From: a virus | Reading direction: 5' to 3' (one strand) | Virus record (IMG/VR): IMGVR_UViG_3300043609_000044 | Coordinates: 1 to 40,541 of that record | Length of the DNA stretch: 40,541 bases | Part shown: piece after piece, positions 3,827 through 40,541 of the stretch | How the letters are laid out: every line of letters begins with the position of its first letter | How positions within the stretch are numbered: position 1 is the stretch's first letter | Program-made: the position numbers and the translations under genes | Notes under the pieces: model-generated | Told to the model about the DNA's origin: nothing | Seen by the model: the letters and a program-made list of their open reading frames with translations, nothing else | Database searches by the model: none

Positions 3827-3829
3827 GGG

Positions 3830-4093: not shown

Positions 4094-4111
4094 GGGACGG
4101 GTCTCCTTCGT

Positions 4112-4306
4112 TTAGATCAAGGCAAAAGCACGCAGCAACCAGAGCACGATCAGTAGCACGACGACGACAGTCAAAAGCGTCTTGATCGGCGGGGCCATCG
4201 GCACGTACTGGTTGATCAAAAACAGACAGACGCCGAGCACGACAATGACGACTAACAACCTGACGATATCCGGCGTCACGAGGGCTTGGAGTGCGAGGGT
4301 GAGCAT
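4112..4306 (-). CDS. Small two-TM membrane protein (holin candidate)
   Basis: 64 aa with two hydrophobic segments. Strong AGGAGG RBS upstream. Confidence 0.7.
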   Translation of the reverse strand: MLTLALQALVTPDIVRLLVVIVVLGVCLFLINQYVPMAPPIKTLLTVVVVLLIVLWLLRAFALI

Positions 4307-4315
4307 GGCGTCCTC

Positions 4316-8046: not shown

Positions 8047-8057
8047 GTCGTCCTTCC

Positions 8058-26622: not shown

Positions 26623-26782
26623 ACGCCGTCTCGCCAAACACGCCGATCAACTCGCCGACCTCGAAGCCGAGATCGCGCGTCTCAAACAGCGCCATGACGC
26701 GGATCGGCAGACGTTCGTGGACGCGATCGGCACGACCGGCGGGAAAGCCACCGTGGCGACCACGAAGAAGAAGACGCCATGA
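26600..26782 (+). CDS. Small coiled-coil protein
   Basis: GTG start. LADLEAEIARLKQRH. Confidence 0.5.
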   Translation: MTNNDALERRLAKHADQLADLEAEIARLKQRHDADRQTFVDAIGTTGGKATVATTKKKTP

Positions 26783-27120
26783 CGGACGTGCCCGCGCAGG
26801 CGTTTCGGGAGGCGGCAGCGAAGGCGCAGTTAGCAGCGGCCAGATGTCGAGAGAGCAAGCGGTACTACGAAGAAACCTTGTGGAATGAACAGGCTGTGTT
26901 GCTCCTCGCCGCCGCCGAGCAGCGCGAGCAGCTCGACGCCGTGATGTACAGCGACGACCAGGTGATCACGGCGCTCCGCGCCGAGCGCGACCAGGCGCGC
27001 ACCGAGATCGCGCAGGCCGTGGCCACGATCCACGCCACCCCCCTCTACTGGTCGCAGGACGCGCTCATGGACGTCCTCGACATTCTCGCCCCCAACGACG
27101 CCCACCCGTCAACCCTTTGA
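26779..27120 (+). CDS. Hypothetical helical protein
   Basis: ATGA overlap with the upstream stop. Confidence 0.55.
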   Translation: MTDVPAQAFREAAAKAQLAAARCRESKRYYEETLWNEQAVLLLAAAEQREQLDAVMYSDDQVITALRAERDQARTEIAQAVATIHATPLYWSQDALMDVLDILAPNDAHPSTL

Positions 27121-27230
27121 CAGGTTCGCCAAAATAGGCTAGCCTGAAGCCAAGCGACAGCCACCCACCCTCCTGAAGTACAAGATCAAGATCTTCCGGC
27201 ACCTAGACGACGCGAACACCCGGTAGGGTT

Positions 27231-27372
27231 GAGCGTCGGCACGACCCTCCCCCGGGCATTGCTGCGGAGCAGCAAACTTCAGCGCGCACGGCTGCGCGGG
27301 GGGTAAGTGCCGCGCGTGGCGCGGCACGGGTAAAGCCCCCGCCGCGCCGGCCCAGCGCGTCGTCCGACGCTC
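27231..27372. ncRNA. Candidate structured RNA (closing helix plus three hairpins), family unknown
   Basis: 27231-27245 pairs with 27359-27372 (14 bp, one bulge). Perfect hairpins at 27259-27275, 27283-27298 and 27307-27327. No credible ORF. Confidence 0.35.
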
Positions 27373-27551
27373 TTGACCTTCGTTCCGTTCCGTTCTTCTC
27401 AGGTGTCAAAAAAAAACACCCACCCCCGTCTCGTCCCTGCCGCGTCCGCTAACGCGTCCGCCGCAGGCACCCCCCTCCGTGACTTAGGCATAGAGAAACT
27501 ATGCCTTCGCTCACACGGACCAGACGGCGCTCCTAAGAGCGTCGGCTGGCG

Positions 27552-27593
27552 CACACCCTGACCTGAATATCCAAACCCGGCACACACCCTGAC
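27552..27593. repeat. Two direct repeats CACACCCTGAC spaced 31 bp (iteron-like)
   Basis: Copies at 27552-27562 and 27583-27593. The second lies in a GGCAC...GTGCC hairpin. Confidence 0.5.
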
Positions 27594-27679
27594 GTGCCAA
27601 GGCCGGGGCCCGTGGGGCCCTGGCCGGGGGCCGTCCGCCGGGACGGCGGCCGGCGTGCGCACGAGCACGCGCGCTGCGC

Positions 27680-27720
27680 GTCAGAGTAGAAGAGAGTGCC
27701 TACTCTCTTCCTACTCTGAC
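27680..27720. terminator. Long hairpin (18 bp, one bulge, GCCT loop) at a convergent junction
   Basis: GTCAGAGTAGAAGAGAGT-gcct-ACTCTCTTC(C)TACTCTGAC. No U-tract, so its role as a bidirectional terminator is inferred. Confidence 0.45.
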
Positions 27721-27775
27721 TCCGTCTGATAATGGTCGTTATGCTTACACTGTCGAACCCTCGGAAACCCTTGCT

Positions 27776-28282
27776 CTATATGGGTTCGTGAGGGATGGCA
27801 GGTAGTAACGCGGGGTTATGTGTGCTGTCGGGGAGGGTATTCACGTCGATACTCTGCGTGCTATGCGTCTGGCGCATGGCTACCACGTCGCCAGAACCCA
27901 CAATGACCGTCACCCCTTGGTTCTGGGGGTCGGGTGCAACGACACCAACGGCGATGAGTGCATCCCGCATCGGACGGTGTTCGCCGCGCTTGGCCGCTTT
28001 GTCGAAGCTGCGAACCCAGTGTTCCGCGGCAAGGTGAGCATTCGCTTTCAGGACACCAAGGGCCGTGGTCGTCGTGGGTTCGCTGCGTCGAAGGATATCG
28101 ACGACGCGTTGATGGCTAAGTTTGACGATACGCGCGATTTCCGACGTGGACACGCCTTGGAGCTGGAGGCGGAGGACATGGATGACTTCGAGGCTAGAGA
28201 TACGCGTGTAGGGTTTGCGGGACGGCGGACGCTTGGTGCCGTATTTACCGCGATCTTCGCGTGTCTCGCTTGCCGCTTCCAC
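27776..28282 (-). CDS. HTH DNA-binding protein (regulator; small-terminase-like possibility not excluded)
   Basis: LQGVSTSEIARIVKLSHQRVVDILRR is a helix-turn-helix. GTG start. Confidence 0.65.
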   Translation of the reverse strand: MEAASETREDRGKYGTKRPPSRKPYTRISSLEVIHVLRLQLQGVSTSEIARIVKLSHQRVVDILRRSEPTTTTALGVLKANAHLAAEHWVRSFDKAAKRGEHRPMRDALIAVGVVAPDPQNQGVTVIVGSGDVVAMRQTHSTQSIDVNTLPDSTHNPALLPAIPHEPI

Positions 28283-28334
28283 GCGTGCATTGTCGCACGG
28301 GTCAAGTTTTTTTTCGTCTCGTCGTCTAAACCCC

Positions 28335-28371
28335 TTGACATCCTATAGACGCTGTCTGTAAGATGTCTGTA
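28335..28371 (+). promoter_or_regulatory. Sigma-70-like promoter with tandem TGTCTGTA repeats (early small-gene operon)
   Basis: TTGACA (28335-28340), 18-nt spacer, TAAGAT (28359-28364). TGTCTGTA at 28353 and 28364 overlaps the -10. A candidate divergent promoter lies on the opposite strand. Confidence 0.4.
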
Positions 28372-28423
28372 TTGGATGCATGGTGCATTCAGTGAACGCC
28401 TGATGACGGGCAAGGGGTTTGAG

Positions 28424-28771
28424 ATGACGAAGACGACGACGAAGCTGCAGTGCTGGAATTGCATTGGGGATGGCTGTTCCGCGTGCGGGTATCAGACGCC
28501 ACGGGTCGAGGCTATGACGCGGTTGACCATGAAGGACGACGGCGTGAACGCGATCGACTTGGGCGTTATTGGGCCGTGGCAATACGCCGTGGACTTCATG
28601 GGGACGACGGCGGCGAACGTTTGGCGCCGGACAGCGGCAGAGGCGGGGACGTATGGCGGTTGGCGGTTTGAATGTGGTTCACATGTGCCGGGACAGTATC
28701 GGCAGCTCCCGGAGTTCGTGGCGCTCGCGTGTCGGTTGGACGACGCGATCGGCTGGATACGTCAGCAGTAG
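28424..28771 (+). CDS. Small Cys-rich hypothetical protein
   Basis: CWNCIGDGCSACGY zinc-ribbon-like motif. Start uncertain (28376, 28403 or 28424). Confidence 0.55.
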   Translation: MTKTTTKLQCWNCIGDGCSACGYQTPRVEAMTRLTMKDDGVNAIDLGVIGPWQYAVDFMGTTAANVWRRTAAEAGTYGGWRFECGSHVPGQYRQLPEFVALACRLDDAIGWIRQQ

Positions 28772-28846
28772 GACGCGTGAAAGGGCGACGGCAGGCCGGA
28801 AGGCCTGTAACCCCCGAGGCTGGTCCGAACGCCAGCCACAGTGAAA

Positions 28847-28884
28847 CGCCTAACGGGTTGGGCATACCGAAAGAGAGAGACAAC
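28847..28884 (+). promoter_or_regulatory. Leader stem-loop motif, copy A
   Basis: GCCT-aacGGGTT-GGGC then CATA and a purine-rich RBS before ATG 28885. Confidence 0.45.
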
Positions 28885-29244
28885 ATGACGACACCTGCGA
28901 GTCAAGCACGCGCGAAACGGTTTTTGGATACGTTCGTGCGCTCGGAATTTGTCGCGAATTGGACTGCTGAACACACCAACGACGGCGGATACGCGCGGCC
29001 GGGCAGCGACGATCGCGACCGATACGACCGGTGCGATGAGGCGGCCGAGAACGGATCGGACGGCATGACCCATGCCGAACACATCTCGGACTGGCGGAAG
29101 GCATTGCCCGCGTATGTGCGGACGTATTCACGGCGGAACCGCTGGTCGGAACTGGAGCGGTTCCTGGCAGCGGTGGAGGCGGAAATTGACGCCGTTGAGG
29201 CGTGGCACGAAGCGAATGGTTCGCTCTTTCAGGAAATTGGGTAA
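28885..29244 (+). CDS. Hypothetical protein
   Basis: ATG after GAAAGAGAGAGA. 119 aa. Confidence 0.65.
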   Translation: MTTPASQARAKRFLDTFVRSEFVANWTAEHTNDGGYARPGSDDRDRYDRCDEAAENGSDGMTHAEHISDWRKALPAYVRTYSRRNRWSELERFLAAVEAEIDAVEAWHEANGSLFQEIG

Positions 29245-29251
29245 CCGTTCG

Positions 29252-29286
29252 CGCGTTGCGGCCTGAGTCACTCAGGCCAGAACGCG
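29252..29286 (+). terminator. Two-tier hairpin after gene 28885..29244
   Basis: CGCGTT-gc-GGCCTGAG-tca-CTCAGGCC-ag-AACGCG. No U-tract. Confidence 0.4.
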
Positions 29287-29296
29287 ACGAGCGGAT

Positions 29297-29341
29297 CTCC
29301 CTCGCCGCTGGGGTTCAGCGGCATAACCGAAGGACAGAGAC
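29297..29341 (+). promoter_or_regulatory. Leader stem-loop motif, copy B
   Basis: TCCCTCGCC then CCGCTG-GGGTT-CAGCGG then CATAA and GAAGGACAGAGA before ATG 29342. Confidence 0.45.
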
Positions 29342-29524
29342 ATGGCATTCACCTTGACACTGAAGACGGAGAACGCGGCATTCGAGGGGGACAACCTTGA
29401 ACACGAGATCGCGCGCATCTTGCGCGTCATTGCCGACAAGTTAGAGAACGGATATCGCCACGGGACGGCGCGCGATCTCAACGGCAACATGGTCGCCCAG
29501 TTCCGGGTAAAGGGGGCGAAGTGA
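29342..29524 (+). CDS. Small hypothetical protein
   Basis: 60 aa. IARILRVIADKLENG ... DLNGNMVAQF is a pattern I recall from many phage early genes, function unknown. Confidence 0.6.
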   Translation: MAFTLTLKTENAAFEGDNLEHEIARILRVIADKLENGYRHGTARDLNGNMVAQFRVKGAK

Positions 29525-29605
29525 TGGCCGCTGAACAGCTCCAAGACTTGATCGCCGGGGTCACCGTGACGAGCACGGAAGGCGCCAGTCTCGCATGGGT
29601 ATCGC

Positions 29606-29887
29606 GTGACGATCCGGTATCAGCGCCGTGCGATGTCGTTCGACTACTGGCACGGGAGCGCGATCGCGCATACGCCACAGGATCGGCCAGCGGAAACCCT
29701 CGATAGCATTCTGTCGGACGCGCAAGCCGGCGAGGAGTCCTTCGAGGACTTCTGCGGAAACTTCGGATACGACACCGACTCGCGCAAGGCTGAGCGGCTG
29801 TATCGCGCCTGCCAGCGGACGAACAAGGCCGTACGGCGCGTGTTCGGGGACGACTTCGAGCGGTTCATTGCAGCGGAACGTGACTGA
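29606..29887 (+). CDS. Hypothetical protein (FCGNFGYDTDSRKAERLY motif); N-terminus possibly continued in another frame from 29521
   Basis: GTG 29606 or ATG 29633. The upstream frame 29521..29706 begins with a GTGA overlap. See finding. Confidence 0.55.
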   Translation: MTIRYQRRAMSFDYWHGSAIAHTPQDRPAETLDSILSDAQAGEESFEDFCGNFGYDTDSRKAERLYRACQRTNKAVRRVFGDDFERFIAAERD

Positions 29888-29938
29888 CGGTCTAGCGTTT
29901 CGGTCGGCCCGCCTGGGGCCGTCCGAAGGGCTATCGAC

Positions 29939-29979
29939 CTTCCCTCGCCTGGGGTTCCGGGCATCAAAGGATAGACGCA
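29939..29979 (+). promoter_or_regulatory. Leader stem-loop motif, copy C
   Basis: TTCCCTCGCC with GCCTGG-GGTT-CCGGGC then CAT and AAAGGATAGA before ATG 29980. Confidence 0.45.
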
Positions 29980-30297
29980 ATGAGCACGTATACGCCCGAA
30001 TGGGCACGAGAGCACAACCCGACGGCCAGCATGACCCACGCGGAGATGACGGCCTATTACAAAGCGAACAGTTTGCGCGGCGATGCGATGTTCGCGCTGC
30101 GGCCGGGTGTCGAGACCCCGGCCGTCATTCTCGACGGCTGGCAGGCCGTCTTGACGGCGTTGGACGCGCGCAAAGGGAAGGCCTCGCCGGCATTGAAGGC
30201 CGAGGGGAAGCGCCTCCGCACCTTGACGCGTGAATGGCTGGCCGACCAGCCGAGGGATACGCGGTTCGAGGCGATCGACGAAAGCGAGGCGGCATAA
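29980..30297 (+). CDS. Hypothetical protein
   Basis: 105 aa. Its stop overlaps the next ATG (TAATG). Confidence 0.65.
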   Translation: MSTYTPEWAREHNPTASMTHAEMTAYYKANSLRGDAMFALRPGVETPAVILDGWQAVLTALDARKGKASPALKAEGKRLRTLTREWLADQPRDTRFEAIDESEAA

Positions 30298-30494
30298 TGG
30301 CGACGAATATCAAGCGCCTGTTTGGGGTGGCGTGCGTGGTGGCCGGCGTGGGGGCCCTGTTTCTGGGGGGATCGTTGCTCTCGAATGCGACCTCGGGCGT
30401 CGGGGTCATTGGGGCCGCGTGTTTTTTGGGTATCGTGGCCCGGCTGGCGCAGGCCAGCGCACACCATGACGAGCGGATGAAAGGGGGCCAGTAA
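30297..30494 (+). CDS. Small two-TM membrane protein
   Basis: LFGVACVVAGVGALFLGG and VIGAACFLGIVARL hydrophobic segments. Confidence 0.6.
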   Translation: MATNIKRLFGVACVVAGVGALFLGGSLLSNATSGVGVIGAACFLGIVARLAQASAHHDERMKGGQ

Positions 30495-30733
30495 TGGCCC
30501 CCCTCTCTCGCGTCACGATCTTCCGGGGGCCGGGCTCATGGATGATCGACATGAGAGACGATCCCTCTGGGCCGGAAACCGCTGAGTTGTTCGGCGGCAC
30601 GATCCTCCCGCTTCCCTACACGTTGGCCGCCAGTCTCGATCGCGTGGTGCTCGGGCTGCGAAGACAGCACCCGGCCATCGTGATCACGTTCGCGGACTAC
30701 AGCACCGTGGTGCGACAGGCGGTGTCGGCATGA
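30494..30733 (+). CDS. Hypothetical protein
   Basis: TAATG coupling upstream, ATGA coupling downstream. Confidence 0.55.
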   Translation: MAPLSRVTIFRGPGSWMIDMRDDPSGPETAELFGGTILPLPYTLAASLDRVVLGLRRQHPAIVITFADYSTVVRQAVSA

Positions 30734-30981
30734 GGCGCAAAAAGTATCAGGAACTCGCGCGCCTGGCGCAACTGGAAGCACGCACGCGCGGCCACGACCT
30801 GGGCGCCTGGACGTGGGGGGGCATGTGGACACCGGGCCGGTCGGTGTCCGGCCGGGTGACAGGTTCGGCCAAGTGTATGGACTGCAAAGCGGAAGCGCAG
30901 ATCGTCTCGTGGCCGGACCCGGACGAAACCGAGATCGGCGGGCCGGCGACGGACACGGCCTGCCAGAAGGGACAGCCGTGA
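30730..30981 (+). CDS. Hypothetical protein
   Basis: ATGA overlap start. 83 aa. Confidence 0.5.
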   Translation: MRRKKYQELARLAQLEARTRGHDLGAWTWGGMWTPGRSVSGRVTGSAKCMDCKAEAQIVSWPDPDETEIGGPATDTACQKGQP

Positions 30982-31178
30982 CGAACCACCCGAAGGACGC
31001 GCCGCCCATCACGGGACTGGAGCTGGTGGCTATTGCGGCATTAGACGCCATCCCACCCGGCGACAACGAAACCGCCCATGTGGACGCCGAGGCGGTGCTC
31101 TTGGCGCTCGTGCATCCCGAGGTGCAGAAGGCGTGGGAACGAGCGAAGCAGCGCGTCGGAGGGTTTTGGTATGCGTAG
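30978..31178 (+). CDS. Hypothetical protein
   Basis: GTGA overlap start. Its first 16 nt after the start base (TGACGAACCACCCGAA) are identical to those of the next gene. Confidence 0.5.
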   Translation: MTNHPKDAPPITGLELVAIAALDAIPPGDNETAHVDAEAVLLALVHPEVQKAWERAKQRVGGFWYA

Positions 31179-31196
31179 CCCAGAGGGAGTCAGCCA

Positions 31197-31490
31197 ATGA
31201 CGAACCACCCGAACCGAGGGAAGAACCCGAACACCCCCGGCCGCACCCCCCGGCCGCACGAAGTGAAGGAAGCGCGGATCGCGCGCGGGTTGACACAGCA
31301 GGCCGCCGCGCGCCTCGTGCATTGCAGCCTGAATAGCTGGCAAAAGTGGGAGGCCGGCGAACGGCGCTGCCACCCGGCGATGTGGGAGCTGTTCCTACGG
31401 AAAACCAAGGCGCTGCCGGTGGCACCGGAGACGGCGGTGGAGGCCGTAGACGGCGAACCGGCGGTAGAGCCGGGGGACGACCAGACGTAG
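31197..31490 (+). CDS. XRE-family HTH protein
   Basis: ARIARGLTQQAAARLVHCSLNSWQKWEAGERR. Confidence 0.7.
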   Translation: MTNHPNRGKNPNTPGRTPRPHEVKEARIARGLTQQAAARLVHCSLNSWQKWEAGERRCHPAMWELFLRKTKALPVAPETAVEAVDGEPAVEPGDDQT

Positions 31491-31536
31491 CGCCACAGCG
31501 GCGCGGAGAGGCACGGACGGCCCGTCCTGGGGACAC

Positions 31537-31788
31537 TCAGGCGGGCCGTTTCTGTTTTCGCGCACGACACGCGCGCACGTTACAACGTCGGCTGCAGTAC
31601 TGGGCCTGCGCGTTCTTGTGCAGAAACGCCGCGCCACACTGCGTGCAGCGTCTCAGTGACCGGAACATCGGCCCGATCACGGCGTCGATCCGTTCCAGGG
31701 ACACGGCGATCTGCGTGAGCAGCACTAGTTGACGCGCGTGGATGTCCGTCATGGCGGCCAGCAGCGCGGCGATCTGTTCGTCACTCAT
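31537..31788 (-). CDS. Small protein with C-terminal CxxC...CSxxC zinc ribbon
   Basis: RRCTQCGAAFLHKNAQAQYCSRRCNVRACRARK. Confidence 0.6.
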   Translation of the reverse strand: MSDEQIAALLAAMTDIHARQLVLLTQIAVSLERIDAVIGPMFRSLRRCTQCGAAFLHKNAQAQYCSRRCNVRACRARKQKRPA

Positions 31789-31836
31789 GGTCGGGAGGGT
31801 AGCAGTACGTCGCGTGTACGGCTAGGATGTCGCGCT

Positions 31837-32097
31837 ATGGCGATCGTCCTGCACGTTCTTGAGGAAGACGAGACAGCCCCGGCGACCTACGTCGTGGCCT
31901 GCGACGTGGACGCGTATGAGGGGATCGGCGCGGTGACGGTGGGGAGCCTCCCGCACGCGAAACGGTTCGCGCATGCCGCCGAGGCGTGGGAATTCTGGAA
32001 GCGCCAGAGCACCGTCAGACCCCTGCGCGCGGACGGGAAACCAAATAGGCCATTAAGCGCCTTGACGGTGGAGTTCGTGACGGTGCCGGAGGGGTGA
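31837..32097 (+). CDS. Hypothetical protein
   Basis: Internal ATG (MAIVLHVL) chosen. Followed by the hairpin GCCGTC-N9-GACGGC. Confidence 0.55.
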   Translation: MAIVLHVLEEDETAPATYVVACDVDAYEGIGAVTVGSLPHAKRFAHAAEAWEFWKRQSTVRPLRADGKPNRPLSALTVEFVTVPEG

Positions 32098-32189: not shown

Positions 32190-32618
32190 ATGGCAAAAGG
32201 GAAACCTGCGGCCGTCACGCCGTCTCAAGTTCGGTTGCTCAATAATTTGCGCGCGTTGATGGCCGCCGCCAAAAACGCCGACCAAACTCAAGGCACTATC
32301 GCGCGGGCCGCAGGCCTGTCTCCACCGTACTTGAGCCTGATCCTCCGTGGCCGACGGAGTCTCTCCCTAGACGTGATCGAGGCGCTCGCGCCAGTGCTCG
32401 GGACCACCGCCGACGCCATCTTGCGACAAGACAATCCTGCTAGCGCCTCACGTGTCCCACTCAGCGCCTCACGTGACCCACTTATTGACCTGTTCGCGGC
32501 AGTGCTGAGGCTGCAGGAAATAGTCATGGAACAGGGACGGGCGATCACCGCGCTGGGAAAAGTTGCCACAAGGCCAGAGAAAGTTGCCACGCCTCAAAAC
32601 ATTGAGCAATCTGAGTGA
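32190..32618 (+). CDS. XRE-family HTH regulator
   Basis: QGTIARAAGLSPPYLSLILRGRRSLSLDVIEALAPVL. Candidate promoter upstream: TTGACG-16-TACTAG. Confidence 0.7.
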   Translation: MAKGKPAAVTPSQVRLLNNLRALMAAAKNADQTQGTIARAAGLSPPYLSLILRGRRSLSLDVIEALAPVLGTTADAILRQDNPASASRVPLSASRDPLIDLFAAVLRLQEIVMEQGRAITALGKVATRPEKVATPQNIEQSE

Positions 32619-33057: not shown

Positions 33058-34128
33058 TCAGGCCCCCTTCTTGATCGGCGTCTTAACGAGGCGCATAGTG
33101 GGCGTCGGTGCGGGAGGCGTGACAGCCGGCGGAAACGCCGCATCCAGCGCCGACTTGGCCCGTGTGCTGGCCGCCGCCCGACTGTACCGCCATGTCTGCT
33201 GCGGCGAGGTGTGGAGGGCCAGTTCGGCCGCCCCCCGTTCATCGGCCGAGTTCTCAACGACGGTCGTGATGAACCGGTGGCGCAAATCGTACACGCGAAA
33301 CCGACGCACGCCAGCCTTGTCGCAGGCGCGGTGCAGGAGGCTGTGGAGCGCGGAGCCGCTAAACGCGCCCCAGGCGTTCACGTCCCGAAACATCTCCAAG
33401 GCGGTCACGGCCGCCGGACTCACCGGGACCGTGCGCGGCCTCGTGCCGCCGCCTTTCTTCCGTCCCGGCGTGGTCACCGTGGAGGTGCGCCAGTGAATAT
33501 CCTGGGGCCGCAGGCGCTTGAGCACCGCACTCGGCCAGCCGGTGGTGAACAACACGTGGAGACGCGCCTGGCTCTTGCTCGGCCCCTTCTTCAACTGCCG
33601 CAGCGCACCAAAGGCGGCCCGCACCACCTCCGGTTCGGGTAAATCAAGCGGGAGTTCTTCCTCGTGATACTTCGGCACGCCTCGTGCGGGGTTCAGGCCC
33701 TCACGGCCGTTAAACACCGTGTAGAAATCCATCAATGCCGTGCGATAGACATTCAGGGTGCCGGGTTTCTTGCCGGACTTGCGGAGAGCTTCCAAGTGCT
33801 GACGGACTTCTACACTCGTCACGCTGTCGAGGGTCCGCTGCCGCCCAAGCCGATCTCGCCACCATTCAATCCGATGCATCCGGTCGATCAGCGTCGGCAT
33901 CCCGGCTTTGGCTTTCTCATACGCTTTCACTTTCCCGCCAAACGTCAACGCCTTCTCAACTTCCGAGACAATGCCGACTTGCGCATTCGCGCGGAGGGTC
34001 TTTAACTCCTCGCGGAGCACCTGGATCGAGGTGTCGCCGGAGAAATTCTTGGAGACGAACTCGCCTTTGACGCGGGCATAAATTTGATACCCCGTCCCTT
34101 GACGGCGAATGCCTTTAGCAATCTTCAT
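33058..34128 (-). CDS. int: Tyrosine recombinase / phage integrase
   Basis: YDLRHRFITT and LALHTSPQQTWRYS (box II H-x-x-R and catalytic Y). N-terminal SAM-like domain. Start MKIAKG preceded by AGGAG. Confidence 0.9.
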   Translation of the reverse strand: MKIAKGIRRQGTGYQIYARVKGEFVSKNFSGDTSIQVLREELKTLRANAQVGIVSEVEKALTFGGKVKAYEKAKAGMPTLIDRMHRIEWWRDRLGRQRTLDSVTSVEVRQHLEALRKSGKKPGTLNVYRTALMDFYTVFNGREGLNPARGVPKYHEEELPLDLPEPEVVRAAFGALRQLKKGPSKSQARLHVLFTTGWPSAVLKRLRPQDIHWRTSTVTTPGRKKGGGTRPRTVPVSPAAVTALEMFRDVNAWGAFSGSALHSLLHRACDKAGVRRFRVYDLRHRFITTVVENSADERGAAELALHTSPQQTWRYSRAAASTRAKSALDAAFPPAVTPPAPTPTMRLVKTPIKKGA

Positions 34129-34257
34129 TGGTGTACACACTCCTGGCAGTTGCTTTCCGCTACTGTCTGTTGTCGAAGGGAAAAGGGTTATCCAGTCTTC
34201 TTGGCAGTCTTGAGGGACCACCGCATCAGGGCCGCCAGGGCGGCGGCTTGGGTCGTC

Positions 34258-34722
34258 TTAGGCCGTTTTCGTACTTTGCGGGTGTGCAAACTTTGAATCT
34301 GGAGATCGATGAATTTTGCGTCGCTTGGACTGACTGCGCGAATCTCGTTCAATTGCTGTATTGAAACTATTGAACACTTCAGCGCGCGCCGCCGGCTCAA
34401 GGTGTTCAGTGGCGAGGAGAGCGACATCGATAAACGCTTGATGGAGCGCTTTGAAGAGCGAGCTACGAGCGAGAGCTGAGCCATGTCGCCGGCCTTTCTC
34501 TAGAGGCAGCACCTGATCTGGGAGCAGAAACAGTTCTGCGACCGAGAGACCGAGCACCACTGCGATGGCGTCCAATTTATCGAGATGGGGTGTGGCGTCC
34601 CCACTCACCCAGGCGCTGACCGTTGACGGGTCCACCCCGGCCTCACGCGCGAGCGCAGCGGACGCCCCACGGCGCGCTCGAAGTTCCAAAAACCTAAGCT
34701 GCAACACGTCCTGTGCGGTCAT
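34258..34722 (-). CDS. CI-like XRE-family repressor (no S24 peptidase domain seen)
   Basis: ALAREAGVDPSTVSAWVSGDATPHLDKLDAIAVVLG. Divergent from the Cro-like gene. Confidence 0.7.
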   Translation of the reverse strand: MTAQDVLQLRFLELRARRGASAALAREAGVDPSTVSAWVSGDATPHLDKLDAIAVVLGLSVAELFLLPDQVLPLEKGRRHGSALARSSLFKALHQAFIDVALLATEHLEPAARAEVFNSFNTAIERDSRSQSKRRKIHRSPDSKFAHPQSTKTA

Positions 34723-34785: not shown

Positions 34786-34827
34786 TTGACATTGACAACC
34801 TTGTGGTATAGCGGCCAATATTTGGCC
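34786..34827 (+). promoter_or_regulatory. Early rightward promoter plus operator
   Basis: Tandem TTGACA TTGACA (34786-34797), TG-n-TATAGC (34804-34812), and inverted repeat GGCCAA-tat-TTGGCC (34813-34827) abutting GTG 34828. Confidence 0.5.
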
Positions 34828-35046
34828 GTGTCAAAGAGACGGCGCACTCACGTCAAACAGCGCGTGCGGCTTTATCTGGCCGAACACGACATGACCCAGG
34901 ACCGGCTGGCGGCCCACGTGGGAATTACAGCGGGCCACTTGTCCAGCATCCTGTCTCGGAAGGAAACCCCCTCGCTGCGGGTGGCCGTCGCGCTCGAAGT
35001 CCTCACCGGAATTCCGGCGCGTGAGTTTGTAGGGGTGGGGCGATGA
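34828..35046 (+). CDS. Cro-like XRE-family HTH protein
   Basis: MTQDRLAAHVGITAGHLSSILSRKETPSL. Start uncertain (TTG 34786, GTG 34828 or GTG 34864). Confidence 0.65.
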   Translation: MSKRRRTHVKQRVRLYLAEHDMTQDRLAAHVGITAGHLSSILSRKETPSLRVAVALEVLTGIPAREFVGVGR

Positions 35047-35318
35047 GTCTCCTCTCACGGGCCGCCGAGACGTGCGTGCCGCTCACGCAGGCCTGCACCA
35101 ACATTGGGTACCCCACCACAGCGACCGGCCAACGAAACCTGCGGCGACAGCTACGACGCAAAGGCTTCGAGGTCCAGCGCGTCGGCAATGTCTTTGTTGT
35201 CCAGGTGAATGTCTGGACGGCCTATCTCAAACGTTGTGCCCAGGACAACGCCAGGCACCGGGCGACCATCTCGGCACAATCCAAAGCCCGCTGGGCCGCC
35301 AAACACGCCGAAGGCTGA
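35043..35318 (+). CDS. Hypothetical basic protein
   Basis: ATGA overlap start. 91 aa. Confidence 0.55.
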   Translation: MSLLSRAAETCVPLTQACTNIGYPTTATGQRNLRRQLRRKGFEVQRVGNVFVVQVNVWTAYLKRCAQDNARHRATISAQSKARWAAKHAEG

Positions 35319-35431: not shown

Positions 35432-35525
35432 ACGTGTCCGCTCGGCTCGACGTCGGCCGTCGCGGGTTGCTTCGCTTGCGGCGACCGTGGGACCGGCGAG
35501 TCGGGCGGCACAAACCGAGGAACTT

Positions 35526-37016
35526 ATGCGACTGACGCTGATAGACCTATCGAGTTTGGCTTATCCCATCTGGCACATGGCCGGGAACGACCCGAACGAA
35601 AACGCCGTGTCCGACCAGCTCGTGGCGCGCGTCCGTGCGCTCGGCGACGGCCACACGGCGATCTGCTGTGACGCCGGCCGTTCGTTTCGCTGCGATATTT
35701 CCGCCGACTACAAAGCCAACCGGAAAGTCGAGGAACGCGCCGTCCTGTACCACCAGATCGACCTGGCGCTCGACCGGCTGCGTGGGGACGGCTTTCCCAT
35801 TTGGTTCGCCAAAGGGTTCGAGGCTGACGACGTGATCGCGTCCGCGTGCAACAAAGCGGCGGAAGACGGCCACGACGTCCTGATCGTGAGTGCCGACAAA
35901 GACCTGCTGCAGCTCATTGTCAATGGCGAACCCGGCGCCGGCAGCGTCTGGGCCAAGTCGCTGAAAACCGGCGACCTGATCGACGAGGCCGCCGTCGAGG
36001 CGCGGTTCGGCGTCACCCCGGCGCAAATGCGCGACTACCTGACGATCGTCGGCGACCAGAGTGACAACGTCAAAGGCGTGGCCGGCATTGGCGAGAAAGG
36101 CGCGGCGGCGCTCCTGCGGCTGTATGGCTCGCTCGACACGATCTACCGGGACTTGGACACCCTGCCGCTGAAGCCGTCCCAGGTGCTCGCCCTCAAGGCC
36201 TTCGAGTCGCGCTTCCACGAAGTCCGCAGCCTGATCACCCTCCGCACCGACGCCCCGGTGCCGTTCGAGGAAATTCTGGAACCCCGCACGCCGAAGGACG
36301 TGCCGCCTATGGTGGACGAACCCGTTGACGAACCACTGGACGATATCGACGAGGCCTTGCCGACCGTGCCACCGCCACCCCCGGCGCCTGTCCCAGACCC
36401 GCCTGGTGCCGCTGTGGCGAGCGCAGAACCTGACAAGCCACCGACCCAAGCCCCAGGTGTCAAAAACCCGACAGGCGGCGTCCTGACCGTCCTGCCGCGC
36501 AACGGCCACGAGGACACCGACTGGAAAGGCCGGCTGGAACCCACGTCCATGGACGAGGCCATGCGGCTGGCGAAATTGGCCTTTGACTCGAAGCAGTTTT
36601 CCGCCTACGGCACGCCGCAGGCGGTGCTCATGACGCTCATGGCCGGACGGGAACTCGGCCTAACGGCCATGGCGAGTTTGAGAGCGCTTCATATCGTAGA
36701 AGGCAAGCCGACGATGAGTGCGGATCTCATGCGCTCCCTCGTGCTGAAGTCCGGGGCGGTGAAGTATTTCCGCTGCGTCGAACGCACGAACGAACAGAGC
36801 ACCTGGGAAGCACAGCGCGGCGACGACCCGCCCCTGTCGCTGACGTTCACGATGGAGGACGCCAAGATGGCCGGCGTCATCAAGCCCGGCAGCGGCTGGG
36901 TGAAGTTCCCGGCCGACATGTGTTCCGCTCGCGCCTCCTCGAAACTGGCCCGCCTCGTCGCGCCTGACGTCCTGGCCGGTATCTACCTGCCGGAAGAAAT
37001 TCGAGAGAACCAATGA
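35526..37016 (+). CDS. Fusion: FEN/Pol I-type 5'-3' exonuclease (N) + Red-beta/RecT-like single-strand annealing domain (C)
   Basis: N-terminal part: FRCDISADYKANR, GFEADDVIAS, IVSADKDLLQL, DNVKGVAGIGEKGAAALL. Pro-rich linker. C-terminal part: GRELGLTAMASLRALHIVEGKPTMSADLM ... GWVKFPADMCSARASSKLARLVAPDVLAGIYLPEE, similar to the Red-beta C-terminal signature. Confidence 0.8.
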   Translation: MRLTLIDLSSLAYPIWHMAGNDPNENAVSDQLVARVRALGDGHTAICCDAGRSFRCDISADYKANRKVEERAVLYHQIDLALDRLRGDGFPIWFAKGFEADDVIASACNKAAEDGHDVLIVSADKDLLQLIVNGEPGAGSVWAKSLKTGDLIDEAAVEARFGVTPAQMRDYLTIVGDQSDNVKGVAGIGEKGAAALLRLYGSLDTIYRDLDTLPLKPSQVLALKAFESRFHEVRSLITLRTDAPVPFEEILEPRTPKDVPPMVDEPVDEPLDDIDEALPTVPPPPPAPVPDPPGAAVASAEPDKPPTQAPGVKNPTGGVLTVLPRNGHEDTDWKGRLEPTSMDEAMRLAKLAFDSKQFSAYGTPQAVLMTLMAGRELGLTAMASLRALHIVEGKPTMSADLMRSLVLKSGAVKYFRCVERTNEQSTWEAQRGDDPPLSLTFTMEDAKMAGVIKPGSGWVKFPADMCSARASSKLARLVAPDVLAGIYLPEEIRENQ

Positions 37017-37834
37017 GTCCGCGACTGCGCGTCCTCTCGCTCGGCGCCGGGGTGCAGAGCACCACGCTCGCGCTCATGGCGGCGGCGGGGGAGATCGGCC
37101 CCATGCCGGACGCGGCGATCTTTGCCGATACCGGCTGGGAACCGACAGCCGTCTACGCGCACCTCGCGTGGCTGCAGTCCGGCGTGCTGCCGTTCCCGAT
37201 CCAGGTCGTCACGGCGGGGAATATCAAAGACGGCATTCTCGCGCGCCGACGCACCGACGGGGGCCGCTATGCGGCCGTCCCCTGGTACAACCTCGGACCC
37301 GACGGCACGACCGGGATCGGCCGGCGGCAATGTAGTAGTGAATACAAGCTCGACCCGATCATGCACGAGACGCGGCGGCTCCTCGGCACCACACGACGCG
37401 GCCGTCTGCCGAAAGGGGCCGCAGAAGTGTGGATCGGGATCTCGGTGGACGAAGCGGCGCGCATGAAACCCGCGCGCCAGCAATGGATGACCAACCGCTG
37501 GCCGCTCATTGAACAGAATATCTCGCGCACCGGCTGCCTCACCTGGATGCGCGACCACGGCTACCCAGAACCGCCGAAGTCCTCCTGTATCGGGTGCCCG
37601 TTTCACAGCGATCGCATGTGGCTGGCGATGCGGCAGGACGCGCCCCAGGAGTTTGCGGACGCGGTGGCCATGGATGCGGCCCTTCGCCTCGGGGACGCGC
37701 CGGGGATGCAGGCCACCGAGTTTATGCACGACGCGCGCATCCCGCTCGCAGACGCCGTCGAACAGGCCGCCCAGAAGAAGCGCGAACAGCCAGACCTATT
37801 TCAGAACGAATGTGAGGGTATTTGTGGCGTCTAA
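37013..37834 (+). CDS. PAPS-reductase-family (PP-loop ATP pyrophosphatase-like) protein
   Basis: VLSLGAGVQSTTLALM PP-loop variant, CIGCPF cysteine pair. ATGA overlap start. Confidence 0.75.
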   Translation: MSPRLRVLSLGAGVQSTTLALMAAAGEIGPMPDAAIFADTGWEPTAVYAHLAWLQSGVLPFPIQVVTAGNIKDGILARRRTDGGRYAAVPWYNLGPDGTTGIGRRQCSSEYKLDPIMHETRRLLGTTRRGRLPKGAAEVWIGISVDEAARMKPARQQWMTNRWPLIEQNISRTGCLTWMRDHGYPEPPKSSCIGCPFHSDRMWLAMRQDAPQEFADAVAMDAALRLGDAPGMQATEFMHDARIPLADAVEQAAQKKREQPDLFQNECEGICGV

Positions 37835-38306
37835 CGCTGAAGTCCTGCTCACCGAAATTCGAGACGCGCTGGTCGAACTCGTCTCGCTGTCGAAGGTGAA
37901 ACCCAATATCCTGCCGCCCGGCGTCAAACCCACCGTCGCCTGGTCGGCGCACGAGAAAACGATCGCCAGCGACCACGAACTCGATCACCCGACGTATGGC
38001 GACCCGGTCGTGAAAAGTGCGCCCCGTGACTGGAATGGCCCCTTCGTCCCCGGCGCCAAAATGAGCGAGCACCCAGCCGAATTCCTCGACCTGCTGGCCG
38101 ACCGCTACGACTACTTCGCCACGAAGAACGATCGGGAAAAGGCCGTCACCGAGAAGGGGTACCCCAAGTCGAAATTCGATCGGGCTGCTGCCGCCAAGGC
38201 GCGCGGCTGGGCCGCCCGCATTCGCAAAGGCTACAAACCGCCGGCCCCGCCGCCCATGGATGACGAGACGCCGGACTGGGGTATGGCAAATGAGCCGCCG
38301 TTCTGA
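37824..38306 (+). CDS. Hypothetical protein
   Basis: GTG 37824 (or 37812), overlapping the upstream stop. 160 aa. Confidence 0.55.
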   Translation: MASNAEVLLTEIRDALVELVSLSKVKPNILPPGVKPTVAWSAHEKTIASDHELDHPTYGDPVVKSAPRDWNGPFVPGAKMSEHPAEFLDLLADRYDYFATKNDREKAVTEKGYPKSKFDRAAAAKARGWAARIRKGYKPPAPPPMDDETPDWGMANEPPF

Positions 38307-39063
38307 TCGCGCTTACTACAACGAGTTTGATCCGCACGCCGCCGCGTGGCTGCGCGCACTGATCGACGCCGACGCGATCATGGCGGGAGACGTGGACGAA
38401 AGGTCGATCGAGGATGTCCGAGCAGTTGACCTTCTGGGATACGTCCGCTGCCACTTCTTCGCCGGTATTGGCGGGTGGGACTACGCCTTGCGCCTCGCGG
38501 GATGGCCTGGCGATCAACCCGTGTGGACCGGCAGTGCCCCTTGTCAGCCCTTTAGTGACGCCGGCGAGCAGCAGGGCGCGGACGACGTGCGTCACCTCTG
38601 GCCGGTATGGTTCGGGCTCATTCGCGAGTGTCGCCCTCACGTCGTCTTTGGCGAACAGGTTGCGGCAGCAATGCGGTACGGCTGGCTCGACGCTCTTTCG
38701 ACAGACCTGGAAGCGGCAGGGTACGCCGTGGGGGCGGTGGTGCTGGGCGCACACAGCGTGGGGGCGCCCCACCTCCGACAGCGGCTCTATTTTGTGGCAG
38801 ACCATTCCCGGCCCCACACCGACCGCCGTGAAGCCCACGGGGGGGATCTCGGTGTGCCGGTTCGGCGGCTCGGGCGCGAGACGGACCATGAAGCACTTCC
38901 TGACGCACCGGGAACTCTATGGGCCGATCAACCCCGCCCTCCTGTCGTACTTGATGGGGTTTCCGCCAGTGTGGGAGAAGTCTGCGGCTACGGCAACGCG
39001 ATCATGCCGCACGTCGCGGCGGAAGTAATTCGCGCTTATATGGCCGTGGAGGCCACCCCATGA
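38290..39063 (+). CDS. DNA (cytosine-5) methyltransferase, short phage type
   Basis: HFFAGIGGW (motif I), SAPCQPFS (IV), FGEQV (VI variant), GAPHLRQRLYFVA (VIII), GYGNAI (X). Confidence 0.85.
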   Translation: MSRRSDRAYYNEFDPHAAAWLRALIDADAIMAGDVDERSIEDVRAVDLLGYVRCHFFAGIGGWDYALRLAGWPGDQPVWTGSAPCQPFSDAGEQQGADDVRHLWPVWFGLIRECRPHVVFGEQVAAAMRYGWLDALSTDLEAAGYAVGAVVLGAHSVGAPHLRQRLYFVADHSRPHTDRREAHGGDLGVPVRRLGRETDHEALPDAPGTLWADQPRPPVVLDGVSASVGEVCGYGNAIMPHVAAEVIRAYMAVEATP

Positions 39064-39413: not shown

Positions 39414-39616
39414 TGTCACTCCTCACCAAGATCATGCACTGGCTCGGCGTGGACGACACGCCTGATCCGGCGTGGCGCAGCACCGGCTATCGCTACACGG
39501 CCACCGGCCACGACGAGGCGCGCGCCGCCGACACCGCCGAACGCCGCGACGAACTCGCCGCGCACCGACGCAAACTCGAAGCGCTGCGATCGAAACCGAC
39601 AAAGGGGACACGGTGA
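39413..39616 (+). CDS. Hypothetical small protein
   Basis: TAATG overlap start. Confidence 0.5.
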   Translation: MSLLTKIMHWLGVDDTPDPAWRSTGYRYTATGHDEARAADTAERRDELAAHRRKLEALRSKPTKGTR

Positions 39617-40541
39617 CGGACACACGCGCCGTTGAGAGCATTGTCTTTCGTGCCGATCTCTATCCTCGGATGGAGACGAGCGCCACGACGGTGCAGAAAT
39701 ATGCCGAGGATCTGGCTGTTCTCCCGCCGATCGAGATCAATCAACATGACGAACTGATCGACGGCTGGCACCGCTGGACGGCGCACCGGAAAACTAAAGC
39801 CGCGACGATCCCTGTGGTCGTCACGACAACCAGCGGCGAGGCGGAATTTCTCGAACTCGCCATTACGCGCAATGCGGCGCACGGCATGCAACTGTCCCAG
39901 GACGACAAGCGCGACATGGCCAGGCGCATCTACGGCGCAACCCCAGAACGCGAACGAGACGCCAAGAAGAAGGCGCTGGCGACCATTCTGAGCGTCAGCG
40001 ACCGCACAGTCCGCGAGTGGTTGAGCCGAGTGGATAAGGATGCTAAGGAAGCCAGGGACCAGAAAATCTTTGACCTCTGGTTGGCGTGCTCGACCCAGCA
40101 GGAAATTGCATCAGCAACGGGTATTGATCAAGGTGATCTGAGCCGCTTGGTTGCGACTTTTATGGAAATCGGCAACCTTGCCAAAAACCATAAAGCTACA
40201 GCCGAGCACGCGACGGACTTCGACCCCCCGCTCTACAACGTCTGGAAACAGCAGACCCGCACCGTCGGCAGCGCGCACTTTGGCAACTCCGAGGCGCGAT
40301 GGCTCGACAACCTGCTCTATCTCTACACCACGCCATTTGACGTGGTGATCGACCCCTTCGCTGGAGGCGGGTCCACCATTGACCTCTGCCAAAAGCGGTT
40401 CCGCCGGTATTTGGTGAGCGACCGGTTGCCCATCATTGAACGCGCCAAGGAGATCCGCCACCACGACGTCACCACCGGCCCCCTAAAGCCGCCGCAGTGG
40501 GGCGACGTGCGCCTGGTCTATCTCGACCCGCCGTACTGGAA
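39613..40541 (+). CDS. ParB-N (nuclease-like) domain fused to N6/N4 DNA methyltransferase, N-terminal part; continues at 1..470
   Basis: My own translation from GTG 39613 (GTGA overlap): IEINQHDELIDGWHRWTAH (ParB-like), an HTH-like middle, then VIDPFAGGGST (motif I). The ORF track omits it because the window ends before a stop. Confidence 0.85.
   Translation, partial: MTDTRAVESIVFRADLYPRMETSATTVQKYAEDLAVLPPIEINQHDELIDGWHRWTAHRKTKAATIPVVVTTTSGEAEFLELAITRNAAHGMQLSQDDKRDMARRIYGATPERERDAKKKALATILSVSDRTVREWLSRVDKDAKEARDQKIFDLWLACSTQQEIASATGIDQGDLSRLVATFMEIGNLAKNHKATAEHATDFDPPLYNVWKQQTRTVGSAHFGNSEARWLDNLLYLYTTPFDVVIDPFAGGGSTIDLCQKRFRRYLVSDRLPIIERAKEIRHHDVTTGPLKPPQWGDVRLVYLDPPYW
40415..40541. repeat. 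Terminal overlap, identical to 1-127
   Basis: Same as above. Confidence 0.95.

Follow-up and report, generated by a model that had tools for sequence, protein, structure and literature searches.

Can the exonuclease and the annealing protein of a phage recombination system be carried on a single polypeptide, and if so, what would the phage use such a protein for? The question is raised by an early gene in the virus record IMGVR_UViG_3300043609_000044, of which the whole stretch analysed here (the window) comprises 40,541 nucleotides. The gene lies in an uninterrupted + strand ORF (35487/35526..37016 in the ORF list), which the initial annotation read as a FEN-type 5'-3' exonuclease joined to a RecT-like domain.

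Translation of this gene probably begins at the ATG at 35526, because the GAGG core of a Shine-Dalgarno sequence is found 5 nt upstream and the alignments of the fusion family open at 'LIDLSS'; the extension to the GTG at 35487 is not conserved. At the other end, the stop codon overlaps the start of the following gene in an ATGA at 37013-37016. The product has three parts, a FEN domain, a disordered linker and a 160-aa RecT/Red-beta-type domain (Table 1). No large gene precedes it in the early operon, and it follows a cI/Cro-type switch with an integrase adjoining; encoding both an integrase and a repressor, the phage of the window is temperate. In some related loci, for example L077, the module is located upstream of replication genes (DnaA_N, helicase).

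Table 1. Features of the fusion gene and the genes downstream of it (window positions)
Feature	Position	Strand	Description
Shine-Dalgarno GAGGAA of the fusion gene	35517..35522	+	Sequence reading; GAGG core 5 nt before the ATG
Fusion gene (likely start)	35526..37016	+	496-aa FEN-linker-RecT-like protein; basis: ORF list, junction sequences, homologs
FEN / 5'-3' exonuclease domain	35526..36281	+	aa 1-252; PIN-like nuclease core, helical arch, H3TH motif
Disordered acidic Pro-rich linker	36282..36530	+	aa 253-335; low-confidence stretch 261-335
RecT/Red-beta-type single-strand annealing core	36531..37013	+	aa 336-496; without C-terminal partner-binding domain
PAPS-reductase-like gene	37013..37834	+	Between fusion and X; phrog_424, E 2.6e-39
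Partner gene X	37824..38306	+	160 aa; GTG start behind GAGGG Shine-Dalgarno; orphan, ends ...ANEPPF

In Pfam, the N-terminal half matches PF02739 (80.1 bits, cut-off 34.3, aa 3-162 of the fusion) and PF01367 (74.6 bits, cut-off 40, aa 163-248). It also matches phrog_107 (E 2.5e-30) and the 5' nuclease of Taq Pol I (E 5e-22), with motifs that align with GYEADDV, TADKDL and TGDESDN of the Taq enzyme. The nine metal-binding carboxylates (D7, D49, E99, D101, D102, D124, D126, D177 and D180) are all present, making both metal sites complete, and across 65 homologs they are invariant except for D7, which is at least 90% conserved. The helical-arch residues Y62, K63 and R66 are invariant in the fusion family, and the H3TH motif is found at G184-G189. 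The AF2 model of the domain has a pLDDT above 90 and, in Foldseek, matches ExoIX (3zdb, E 4.5e-17, TM 0.86), T5 FEN (1.2e-14) and M. smegmatis FenA (1.2e-14). Among the NCBIfam models, the highest score is against those for the Pol I N-terminus (TIGR00593, 1.1e-46). Pol I, ExoIX/Xni and FenA provide the best sequence and structure matches of this half. The NCBIfam scores are nevertheless far under the equivalog cut-offs (159.7 against 600 for Pol I and 108.7 against 261 for Xni), and it can therefore be deduced that the fusion is not an ortholog of Pol I, ExoIX/Xni or FenA. The FEN half is predicted to have Mg-dependent 5'-3' exonuclease/flap endonuclease activity.

Among the PHROG families, the C-terminal half matches phrog_561 ('RecT-like ssDNA annealing protein') over aa 339-494 with E 2.6e-25 and, at E 4.8e-17, phrog_4171; its tblastn matches lie on phage genes annotated as RecT-like. 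Its model (pLDDT 87) folds as the Red-beta/RecT core, residues 1-177 in Red-beta. The best PDB match in Foldseek is the Red-beta N-terminal domain (7ujl_A, E 3.5e-4, TM 0.46/0.52), followed by LiRecT, the Listeria phage RecT (7ub2_E, E 1e-3, TM 0.53/0.51, 163 columns). The third-ranked match is already at E 0.04, leaving only Red-beta and LiRecT significant; the fold similarity is moderate (TM about 0.5) and the identity to solved RecT/Red-beta structures 15-20%. In BFVD, the fold matches are RecT/Bet proteins. At the sequence level, the half scores under the threshold of Pfam RecT (PF03837; 16.5 bits vs 24). Weak matches to the same model are found in 18 of 20 fusion-family members (best E 9.7e-6), some family members carry a precomputed PF03837 match, and the stand-alone relative P0479 (46% identity) passes with 32.6 bits over model positions 15-187 of 198. 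Because the C-terminal half in the window is under the Pfam threshold, its membership in RecT/Red-beta, a group of the Rad52-like SSAP superfamily, rests on transitive homology and fold. Searching the PDB sequences by phmmer with the C-terminal half or with the family profile returned no RecT/Red-beta protein, only spurious designed-repeat matches, and NCBIfam returned nothing for this half. An hhalign comparison of its profile with Che9c gp61 and E. coli RecT yielded no information, since a single sequence makes too shallow a template.

This half is also the more conserved part of the fusion (column identity 0.7-0.88). It contains eight conserved basic residues, including R375, R469 and R476, and the invariant basic and aromatic residues are typical of a DNA-binding surface. 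Given this homology, we predict that it anneals ssDNA and oligomerises. The Pfam RecT model has 198 positions, of which 149-189 align with the ending GWVKFPADM...YLPEE of this half, and the protein stops about 5 residues past the annealing core, with no C-terminal partner-binding domain or tail.

Between the two domains, residues 261-335 form a linker of about 75 aa with 25% Pro, a net charge of -10 and an AlphaFold pLDDT of 41-56. It is weakly conserved, ranging from 52 to 141 aa across 65 homologs.

The initial annotation, made from the sequence alone, was right to propose one polypeptide, given the single ORF and the homologs with the same fusion. Its FEN domain with all acidic motifs is confirmed by Pfam, by the carboxylates in 65 homologs and by Foldseek, and its Red-beta/RecT-like half by phrog_561, Foldseek and BFVD, with no unrelated fold emerging. 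Its linker is indeed Pro-rich, but is longer than the roughly 60 aa suggested. The parallel that it drew between the end of the protein and the Red-beta C-terminus was mistaken: the protein finishes where its annealing core does and has no C-terminal domain of the Red-beta type.

A protein of this kind could result from an assembly or sequencing artefact, two genes having been joined through a missed stop codon or a frameshift. Two observations might be taken that way: in the related contig L007, the halves are in different frames with a 34-nt overlap, and certain database gene calls give the C-terminal part alone (P0143). However, more than 120 full-length fusion homologs were found at 45-79% identity, both halves share one ORF in about 48 independent viral contigs, and of the top 150 protein clusters (50% identity) at least 110 are demonstrably fused, despite the widely varying linker. 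P0143 looks short through an error in gene calling, its ORF being continuous over 643 aa. The FEN frame of L007 departs from the conserved sequence directly after 'LRTD', so that the conserved 'APIPF' is missing, as expected from a frameshift. Neither was accepted as a split version of the gene, nor was P0169, which is cut by a contig end. A separate RecT produced from a conserved internal start was likewise rejected; the Met close to where the domain begins falls within the conserved 'WERQLEPRSM' but is not itself conserved. In a neighbour-joining tree, a single clade holds every fused form, even the distant L066, and 18 of the 19 stand-alone forms lie outside it. The artefact is thus effectively refuted, with next to no chance of being correct, and on these sequence comparisons the fusion is a conserved, monophyletic architecture. 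The frameshift or missed stop that the initial annotation had flagged as a concern is accordingly excluded; its suggested search for fused versus split homologs gave the fused forms counted above, and the split candidates were explained away.

A search of the GenBank phage collection gave no phage covering 80% or more of the fusion protein, and in the reference genomes, relatives of the fusion were found in 7 MAG contigs and in zero isolates. The family also occurs in a prophage within a 315-kb contig. Its database labels are only '5'-3' exonuclease' or 'PIN_53EXO domain protein'. In the accessible portions of the literature, including SSAP surveys and reviews and the PIN-superfamily classification, no FEN-RecT or exonuclease-annealase fusion is described; an earlier mention is possible.

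The stand-alone relatives share the annealing core at 31-48% identity (135-140 bits for the closest representative clusters), and the nearest of them are genuine RecT-family proteins. They have the core at the N-terminus and, behind it, a tail of 60 to about 230 aa; by comparison, the fusion has evidently lost this tail. Their genes adjoin canonical nucleases. For example, gp044 of Burkholderia phage PE067 is next to a YqaJ exonuclease, and L009 and L064 are next to PD-(D/E)XK/DUF2800 nucleases. The stand-alone subfamily (PE067 gp044, L009/L064, the actinophage 'RecT-like' proteins, phrog_561) resembles the fusion in its homologous core and its location in the phage early region, but differs in having a separate canonical exonuclease gene, a C-terminal tail and no partner X (see below). 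No YqaJ or PD-(D/E)XK homolog was found in the fused loci, and neither another recombination gene nor a dedicated replication nuclease was detected in the window, as judged from tblastn and from PHROG/Pfam scans of selected ORFs. The loss of the canonical exonucleases from the fused clade suggests that the FEN domain has taken the place of the recombination exonuclease and is not an added replication function. The proposal of a non-canonical exonuclease partner thus held, the nuclease being FEN/PIN-like and not of the YqaJ, RecE or other PD-(D/E)XK type.

Two genes follow the fusion in the window. The first, a PAPS-reductase-like gene, is absent from all 50 related loci (50/50) and therefore lies outside the conserved module. 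The second, which we call X, is present in 43 of 50 fused-family loci, mostly directly downstream of the fusion and often with a start/stop overlap, and probably belongs to the recombination module. The X family has at least 1003 clusters. No Pfam, PHROG or PDB-sequence match was found for X with 24 members and their profile, and no OB-fold/SSB domain was detected. Its C-terminus is distinctive: an aromatic residue is found among the last 3 positions in 95% of 120 X homologs vs 16% of background ORFs, and the last 12 residues have a mean net charge that is acidic by 3.06, against a background that is basic by 0.47. The commonest ending is DIPF; the tail of E. coli SSB ends ...DDDIPF. X therefore has an SSB-like acidic C-terminal tail with a hydrophobic/aromatic tip. 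The SSB-tip gene found upstream of stand-alone RecTs is not related to X.

Considering homology and gene context together, we favour the view that the fusion is probably a single-chain 'SynExo' recombinase of a temperate phage. The enzymatic activities and the order of events would be as follows. At a double-strand DNA end, the FEN domain would thread the 5' strand via its helical arch and resect in the 5'-3' direction. The RecT/Red-beta-type domain, kept close by the flexible acidic linker, would load on the emerging 3' strand, oligomerise, and pair this strand with a complementary single strand at a resected end or a replication fork, all of it in a protein missing the C-terminal partner-binding domain of the annealase. 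Since FEN acts on free 5' ends or flaps only, many nuclease copies on the filament should spare the 3' strand, and these copies could trim 5' flaps after annealing. T7 gp6, a FEN homolog and duplex-specific 5'-3' exonuclease, needs an ssDNA-binding protein to escape inhibition by the 3' ssDNA that it produces (PMC4124056); coating of the 3' tail by the annealase should relieve such product inhibition here. For RecT proteins, the recognised part of SSB is its last 7 residues (10.1101/2020.04.14.041095), and X probably supplies or mimics this SSB-tail handle. As in two-component systems, an exonuclease and an annealase are co-encoded and coupled, although the coupling is covalent and not by protein-protein contact.

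Some considerations count against the recombinase. Red-beta requires its C-terminal domain even for ssDNA recombination, and by analogy an annealing core without this domain may be insufficient unless X or the FEN domain compensates. We also know of no system with an obligatory 1:1 ratio of nuclease to annealase. Moreover, the nuclease half by itself is no proof of a role in recombination, because FEN enzymes also serve replication in primer and flap removal. The protein might be a replication or repair enzyme, in which the FEN domain removes RNA primers or 5' flaps and the RecT-like domain only tethers it by binding ssDNA or annealing at the fork, similar to the coupling of a FEN domain with a polymerase in Pol I. 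The best score of the FEN domain being against Pol I models, the position upstream of DnaA_N and helicase in certain related loci, the lack of an identified dedicated replication nuclease within the window and the documented role of T7 gp6 in primer removal (PMC4124056) would all suit such an enzyme. We nonetheless regard it as unlikely, since the stand-alone relatives of the C-terminal half occur in classical exonuclease-annealase pairs, the fused clade is specifically without those exonucleases, which points to replacement, and an annealase core is not a typical processivity tether.

Other readings give the annealase-like domain a different task. It might no longer anneal and might instead render the nuclease multimeric, as a scaffold for oligomerisation or DNA binding, with recombination not the purpose. 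The divergence of this half, in its sub-threshold Pfam score and low identity to solved structures, and the missing domain that Red-beta requires in vivo are consistent with a scaffold. Against this, the half is more conserved than the rest of the protein, keeps the invariant basic and aromatic residues of a DNA-binding surface and retains the full stand-alone RecT core, as aligned to LiRecT, making the scaffold improbable. A slimmer chance still is given to a role in host takeover or anti-defence, in which the nuclease would degrade the DNA of the host or of competitors in the manner of the T5 and T7 exonucleases, with the annealase-like domain targeting it to DNA. T7 gp6 does contribute to the breakdown of host DNA (PMC4124056), and effector-domain fusions are frequent in phages. 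However, wholesale degradation of host DNA fits poorly with a temperate phage carrying an integrase and a repressor, a family member resides in the prophage of the 315-kb contig, and both the SSB-tip partner and the replaced recombination exonucleases would be left unexplained.

As a recombinase, the fusion can be compared with several known systems. Lambda Red (Exo/Red-alpha + Beta) and Rac RecE/RecT likewise combine a 5'-3' exonuclease with a RecT/Red-beta-fold annealase, in the early region of a temperate phage, and the fusion would share their logic of resecting the 5' strand, loading the annealase on the 3' tail and annealing. They differ in being two proteins with a PD-(D/E)XK nuclease (lambda Exo, RecE, YqaJ), whereas the fusion is one polypeptide with a FEN/PIN-like nuclease. 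In addition, Red-beta has a C-terminal domain that binds the exonuclease and SSB, while the annealase of the fusion ends at the core. The T7 gene 6 exonuclease with gp2.5, and T5 D15, are closer in their nuclease, a FEN-family, duplex-specific 5'-3' exonuclease used alongside an ssDNA-binding/annealing protein, but unlike the fusion these are separate proteins of lytic phages with no covalent link. Moreover, gp2.5 is an OB-fold SSB and does not have the RecT/Red-beta fold. In Pol I, as in the fusion, the FEN domain is joined C-terminally to a DNA-handling module, which is a polymerase in the one and an annealase in the other. The SPP1-type module encodes the exonuclease G34.1P, the RecT-like G35P and the SSB G36P, and its order of nuclease, annealase and SSB-tail protein resembles that of FEN-RecT followed by X; however, G36P is an SSB, while X resembles SSB in its C-terminal tip only.

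Recombineering is built on phage exonuclease-annealase pairs (lambda Red, RecET), which need a specific non-covalent contact between exonuclease and annealase and a compatible host SSB tail; for RecT-family annealases, this SSB-tail requirement limits portability between species. A further, rather doubtful extension of the recombinase reading is that the fusion and X constitute a self-contained, largely host-independent recombination machine, with X giving the SSB-tail handle in trans. If so, fusion and X would amount to a compact and portable two-gene cassette for recombineering, with flap trimming built in, and the family would represent a second evolutionary solution to exonuclease-annealase coupling.

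For the phages themselves, the finding means that a covalent, one-chain exonuclease-annealase has been repeatedly kept, with a nuclease from a different superfamily (FEN/PIN-like) and with the partner-binding domain of the annealase dropped. The family is abundant in uncultured phages, with at least 110 clusters at 50% identity, and is a candidate for a compact recombinase. X, an orphan with an SSB-like tip, may account for the way in which such systems connect to SSB-dependent machinery.

The fusion gene is an uninterrupted ORF on the + strand, running from either a GTG at 35487 or an ATG at 35526 to a stop at 37014–37016, where it overlaps the start of the next gene in an ATGA. The ATG is the likely start, giving a product of 496 aa; it is preceded, at a distance of 5 nt, by a GAGG Shine-Dalgarno core, and since family homologs can be aligned only from 'LIDLSS' onward, the 13-codon extension from the GTG is not conserved. 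In the N-terminal half, Pfam detects PF02739 at aa 3–162 (80.1 bits, cut-off 34.3) and PF01367 at aa 163–248 (74.6 bits, cut-off 40), and the PHROGs family phrog_107, 'exonuclease', also matches (2.5e-30). By sequence, its matches among solved structures are the Taq Pol I 5' nuclease (5e-22), Xni/ExoIX, M. smegmatis FenA and T5 FEN, and GFEADDV, SADKDL and VGDQSDN align with the Taq signature motifs. The initial annotation had described all the acidic motifs as present, and this holds across the family: in an alignment of 65 members, the invariant positions include eight carboxylates (D49, E99, D101, D102, D124, D126, D177 and D180), three arch residues (Y62, K63, R66) and the glycines of the H3TH motif; D7 is conserved in ≥90%. 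The AlphaFold model based on the 65-sequence alignment has pLDDT >90 in this domain, which superposes on ExoIX (E 4.5e-17, TM 0.86) as well as on T5 FEN and FenA. With every testable feature found, the protein belongs to the FEN family. Its top NCBIfam scores, to Pol I and '5'-3' exonuclease' models, are far under the equivalog cut-offs, which sets the domain apart as a separate FEN branch that is not orthologous to Pol I, Xni or YpcP.

The segment joining the two halves is predicted to behave as a disordered tether. In the AlphaFold model, residues 261–335 have pLDDT values of 41–64 in 10-residue blocks (<57 up to residue 330), and they are 25% proline with a net charge of -10. Among family members this linker is between 52 and 141 aa long, with abundant Ala, Pro and Glu, and it shows the lowest conservation of any part of the protein.

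For the C-terminal half, the Pfam RecT model matches weakly: the full protein gives E 0.14, and the isolated half 16.5 bits against a cut-off of 24. Matches were obtained for 18 of 20 family members, all around model positions 149–189 of 198; the proposal that the ending parallels the Red-beta C-terminus was therefore mistaken. The broader assignment of this half to RecT/Red-beta was borne out. The PHROGs profile phrog_561, 'RecT-like ssDNA annealing protein', covers aa 339–494 (E 2.6e-25), phrog_4171 also matches (4.8e-17), and tblastn retrieved 403 phage records, many annotated as RecT-like, from Gordonia, Mycobacterium, Propionibacterium, Arthrobacter, Rhizobium and Bacillus phages. Sequence searches of the PDB gave no RecT/Red-beta match. 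A confident structure model of this half (pLDDT 87) has exactly two significant fold matches in the PDB: 7ujl, in which the N-terminal domain of lambda Red-beta is bound to DNA (E 3.5e-4), and 7ub2, in which RecT of Listeria phage A118 sits on an annealed duplex (E 1e-3, alignment over 163 columns). The third hit is at E 0.04. The full-length model retrieves the same pair, and the predicted viral structures that match are RecT and Bet proteins. A protein with the core but no FEN domain, P0479 (46% identity to this half), exceeds the Pfam RecT threshold across nearly the whole model. The invariant or near-invariant residues R375, R386, R416, R420, R431, R469, K473 and R476 would fit a DNA-binding surface. 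We conclude that the C-terminal half is a true, though divergent, annealing core of the RecT/Red-beta type, and that the fusion protein is, by fold and PHROG profile, a divergent RecT/Red-beta member that itself stays under the Pfam threshold.

A search of 5.8 billion proteins returned >120 full-length fusion homologs of 460–550 aa, with 45–79% identity and, in all but two, 96–100% coverage. All are from metagenomes, and those with names are called only '5'-3' exonuclease'; a UniProt member is labelled only 'PIN_53EXO domain containing protein'. No isolate genome carrying the family was found among 185,579 species representatives. The loci L008–L014 are MAG contigs only, with assignments to widely differing phyla (Chloroflexota, Peribacteria, Gemmatimonas, Brocadiaceae and Phycisphaerales); most are 3–5 kb, and their binning is doubtful.

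To separate fused from split arrangements, the stop-to-stop ORFs of 62 viral and 7 MAG contigs with relatives of the C-terminal half were scored with a separate HMM for each half. Both halves were in one ORF in every close relative with sufficient upstream sequence (about 48 loci), as in the window itself, upholding the original reading of a single polypeptide; a distant member, L066 (36% identity in the C-terminal half), is also a one-ORF fusion. Apparent short forms had other explanations. In contig L005, the called gene for P0143 is only the last 165 aa of a continuous 643-aa FEN-linker-RecT ORF (2567–4498), and short versions in four further contigs (L006, L037, L047 and L048) are accounted for by contig ends. 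The gene-calling error in L005 leaves a 1.3-kb stretch 'gene-free', and similar artefacts may hide other family members. The only related contig with the halves in different frames is L007 (3147–4795), where they overlap by 34 nt. Its FEN frame lacks the conserved 'APIPF' motif directly after 'LRTD', which speaks against a designed split and suggests that a frameshift, from sequencing error or in a pseudogene, is the probable cause.

An exhaustive phmmer search of the C-terminal half against 1.84 billion cluster representatives gave 21,363 relatives at E up to 1e-3 and 250 at E up to 1e-30. Among the best 150 of the 21,363, 89 are fused to a complete FEN domain, 21 are fused and N-terminally truncated, and the remainder comprise 24 that begin in the linker, 10 stand-alone proteins and 6 short ones. 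A neighbour-joining tree of annealing domains, calculated without support values, places all 108 fused forms in a single clade and 18 of 19 stand-alone forms outside it, a pattern consistent with one old fusion event.

Nucleotides 1–127 of the window are identical to 40415–40541. The assembly is thus circular and complete at about 40.4 kb, and the early operon runs from the end of the window on into its start. The virus is a temperate phage, and the fusion gene is in the usual place of recombination modules in such phages.

Features of the early region and of stand-alone RecT loci
Feature	Locus	Coordinates	Strand	Remarks
Third HTH regulator	window	32190–32618	+	other side of integrase
Integrase	window	33058–34221	-	
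cI-like repressor	window	34258–34722	-	HTH
Cro-like regulator	window	34786–35046	+	HTH
Small ORF	window	35043–35318	+	
Fusion gene	window	35526–37016	+	
PAPS-reductase-like gene	window	37013–37834	+	phrog_424 E 2.6e-39, no Pfam match
Partner X	window	37824–38306	+	
DNA methyltransferase	window	38260–39063	+	
Sigma factor (RNA polymerase)	window	2717–3400	+	phrog_351 E 2e-30; past circular junction, distal end of early operon
Upstream SSB-tip gene	L009	1009–1506		ends ...DPDGLPF
Upstream SSB-tip gene	L064	729–1328		...DEDIPF about 18 residues before ORF end

Of the early and accessory ORFs (+ strand, 1–3826 and 26779–32097; - strand, 30536–31063, 39493–39891 and 40111–40464), most are without any PHROG or Pfam match, and none of the window ORFs scanned could be recognised as a replication gene (polymerase, primase, helicase or initiator). 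The PAPS-reductase-like gene, which sits between the fusion gene and partner X and overlaps both, was found in 0 of 50 related loci and appears to have entered the module recently by insertion. Module composition varies between loci. For example, L078 has an RNase_T/DnaQ-type 3'-5' exonuclease (3441–4019; PF00929, 5.6e-10) between the fusion and X, and L077 has an AAA_23/SMC-like ATPase (7147–8454) immediately upstream of the fusion.

Partner X, a 160-aa product of an unannotated ORF, occurs in 43 of 50 fused-family loci, usually directly 3' of the fusion and often with its start overlapping the fusion stop; the pair is also present in an NCBI MAG and in a prophage that forms part of a 315-kb contig. 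X has homologs in at least 1003 database clusters, all of 139–172 aa and all unnamed or 'hypothetical protein', and had no match in Pfam, PHROG or PDB sequences. In 120 homologs, an aromatic residue is present in the last three positions in 95%, versus a background of 16%, and the final 12 residues are highly acidic. 'DIPF', which is also the tip of E. coli SSB, is the most frequent ending; the window's X ends ...ANEPPF. RecT-family proteins have been reported to recognise SSB by its last 7 residues (10.1101/2020.04.14.041095; PMC13490951), and on this basis X is probably the third component of the module, one that either provides an SSB tail or mimics one.

In stand-alone relatives the core is N-terminal, with a tail of 60 to about 230 aa behind it, and their genes adjoin canonical recombination exonucleases: a YqaJ protein in Burkholderia phage PE067 and a PD-(D/E)XK/DUF2800 protein in contigs L009 and L064. 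An SSB-like tip is also present on a gene upstream of RecT in stand-alone RecT + PD-(D/E)XK modules; in L009 and L064 these genes are unrelated to X in sequence (hhalign probability 0.45%) and have no Pfam match. Neither YqaJ nor PD-(D/E)XK/DUF2800 nucleases were detectable in the 50 fused-family loci or the window, which argues that the FEN domain fills the recombination-exonuclease role; when scanned with PHROG and Pfam, the remaining early and accessory ORFs of the window gave no further nuclease, SSB or recombinase. The fusion has also lost the partner-binding tail.

In full-text searches with incomplete coverage of the literature, and in selective reading that took in surveys of SSAPs, a review of recombineering structures and the PIN-superfamily classification, no account of a FEN-RecT or other natural exonuclease-annealase fusion was found. 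The fusion protein is proposed to work like lambda Red/RecET, although the exonuclease there is of the PD-(D/E)XK type and the annealase has a C-terminal domain, both absent here. Judging from the family membership of its halves, the FEN domain would resect the 5' strand at a duplex end, and the tethered annealing domain would coat the 3' tail and pair it with a complementary strand, the tether standing in for the Exo-annealase contact. Because FEN enzymes depend on a free 5' end or a flap, multiple copies on a filament would be harmless to the 3' strand, and flaps could be trimmed after annealing. [quoted passage not shown] We consider it rather probable that the fusion protein is a recombinase.
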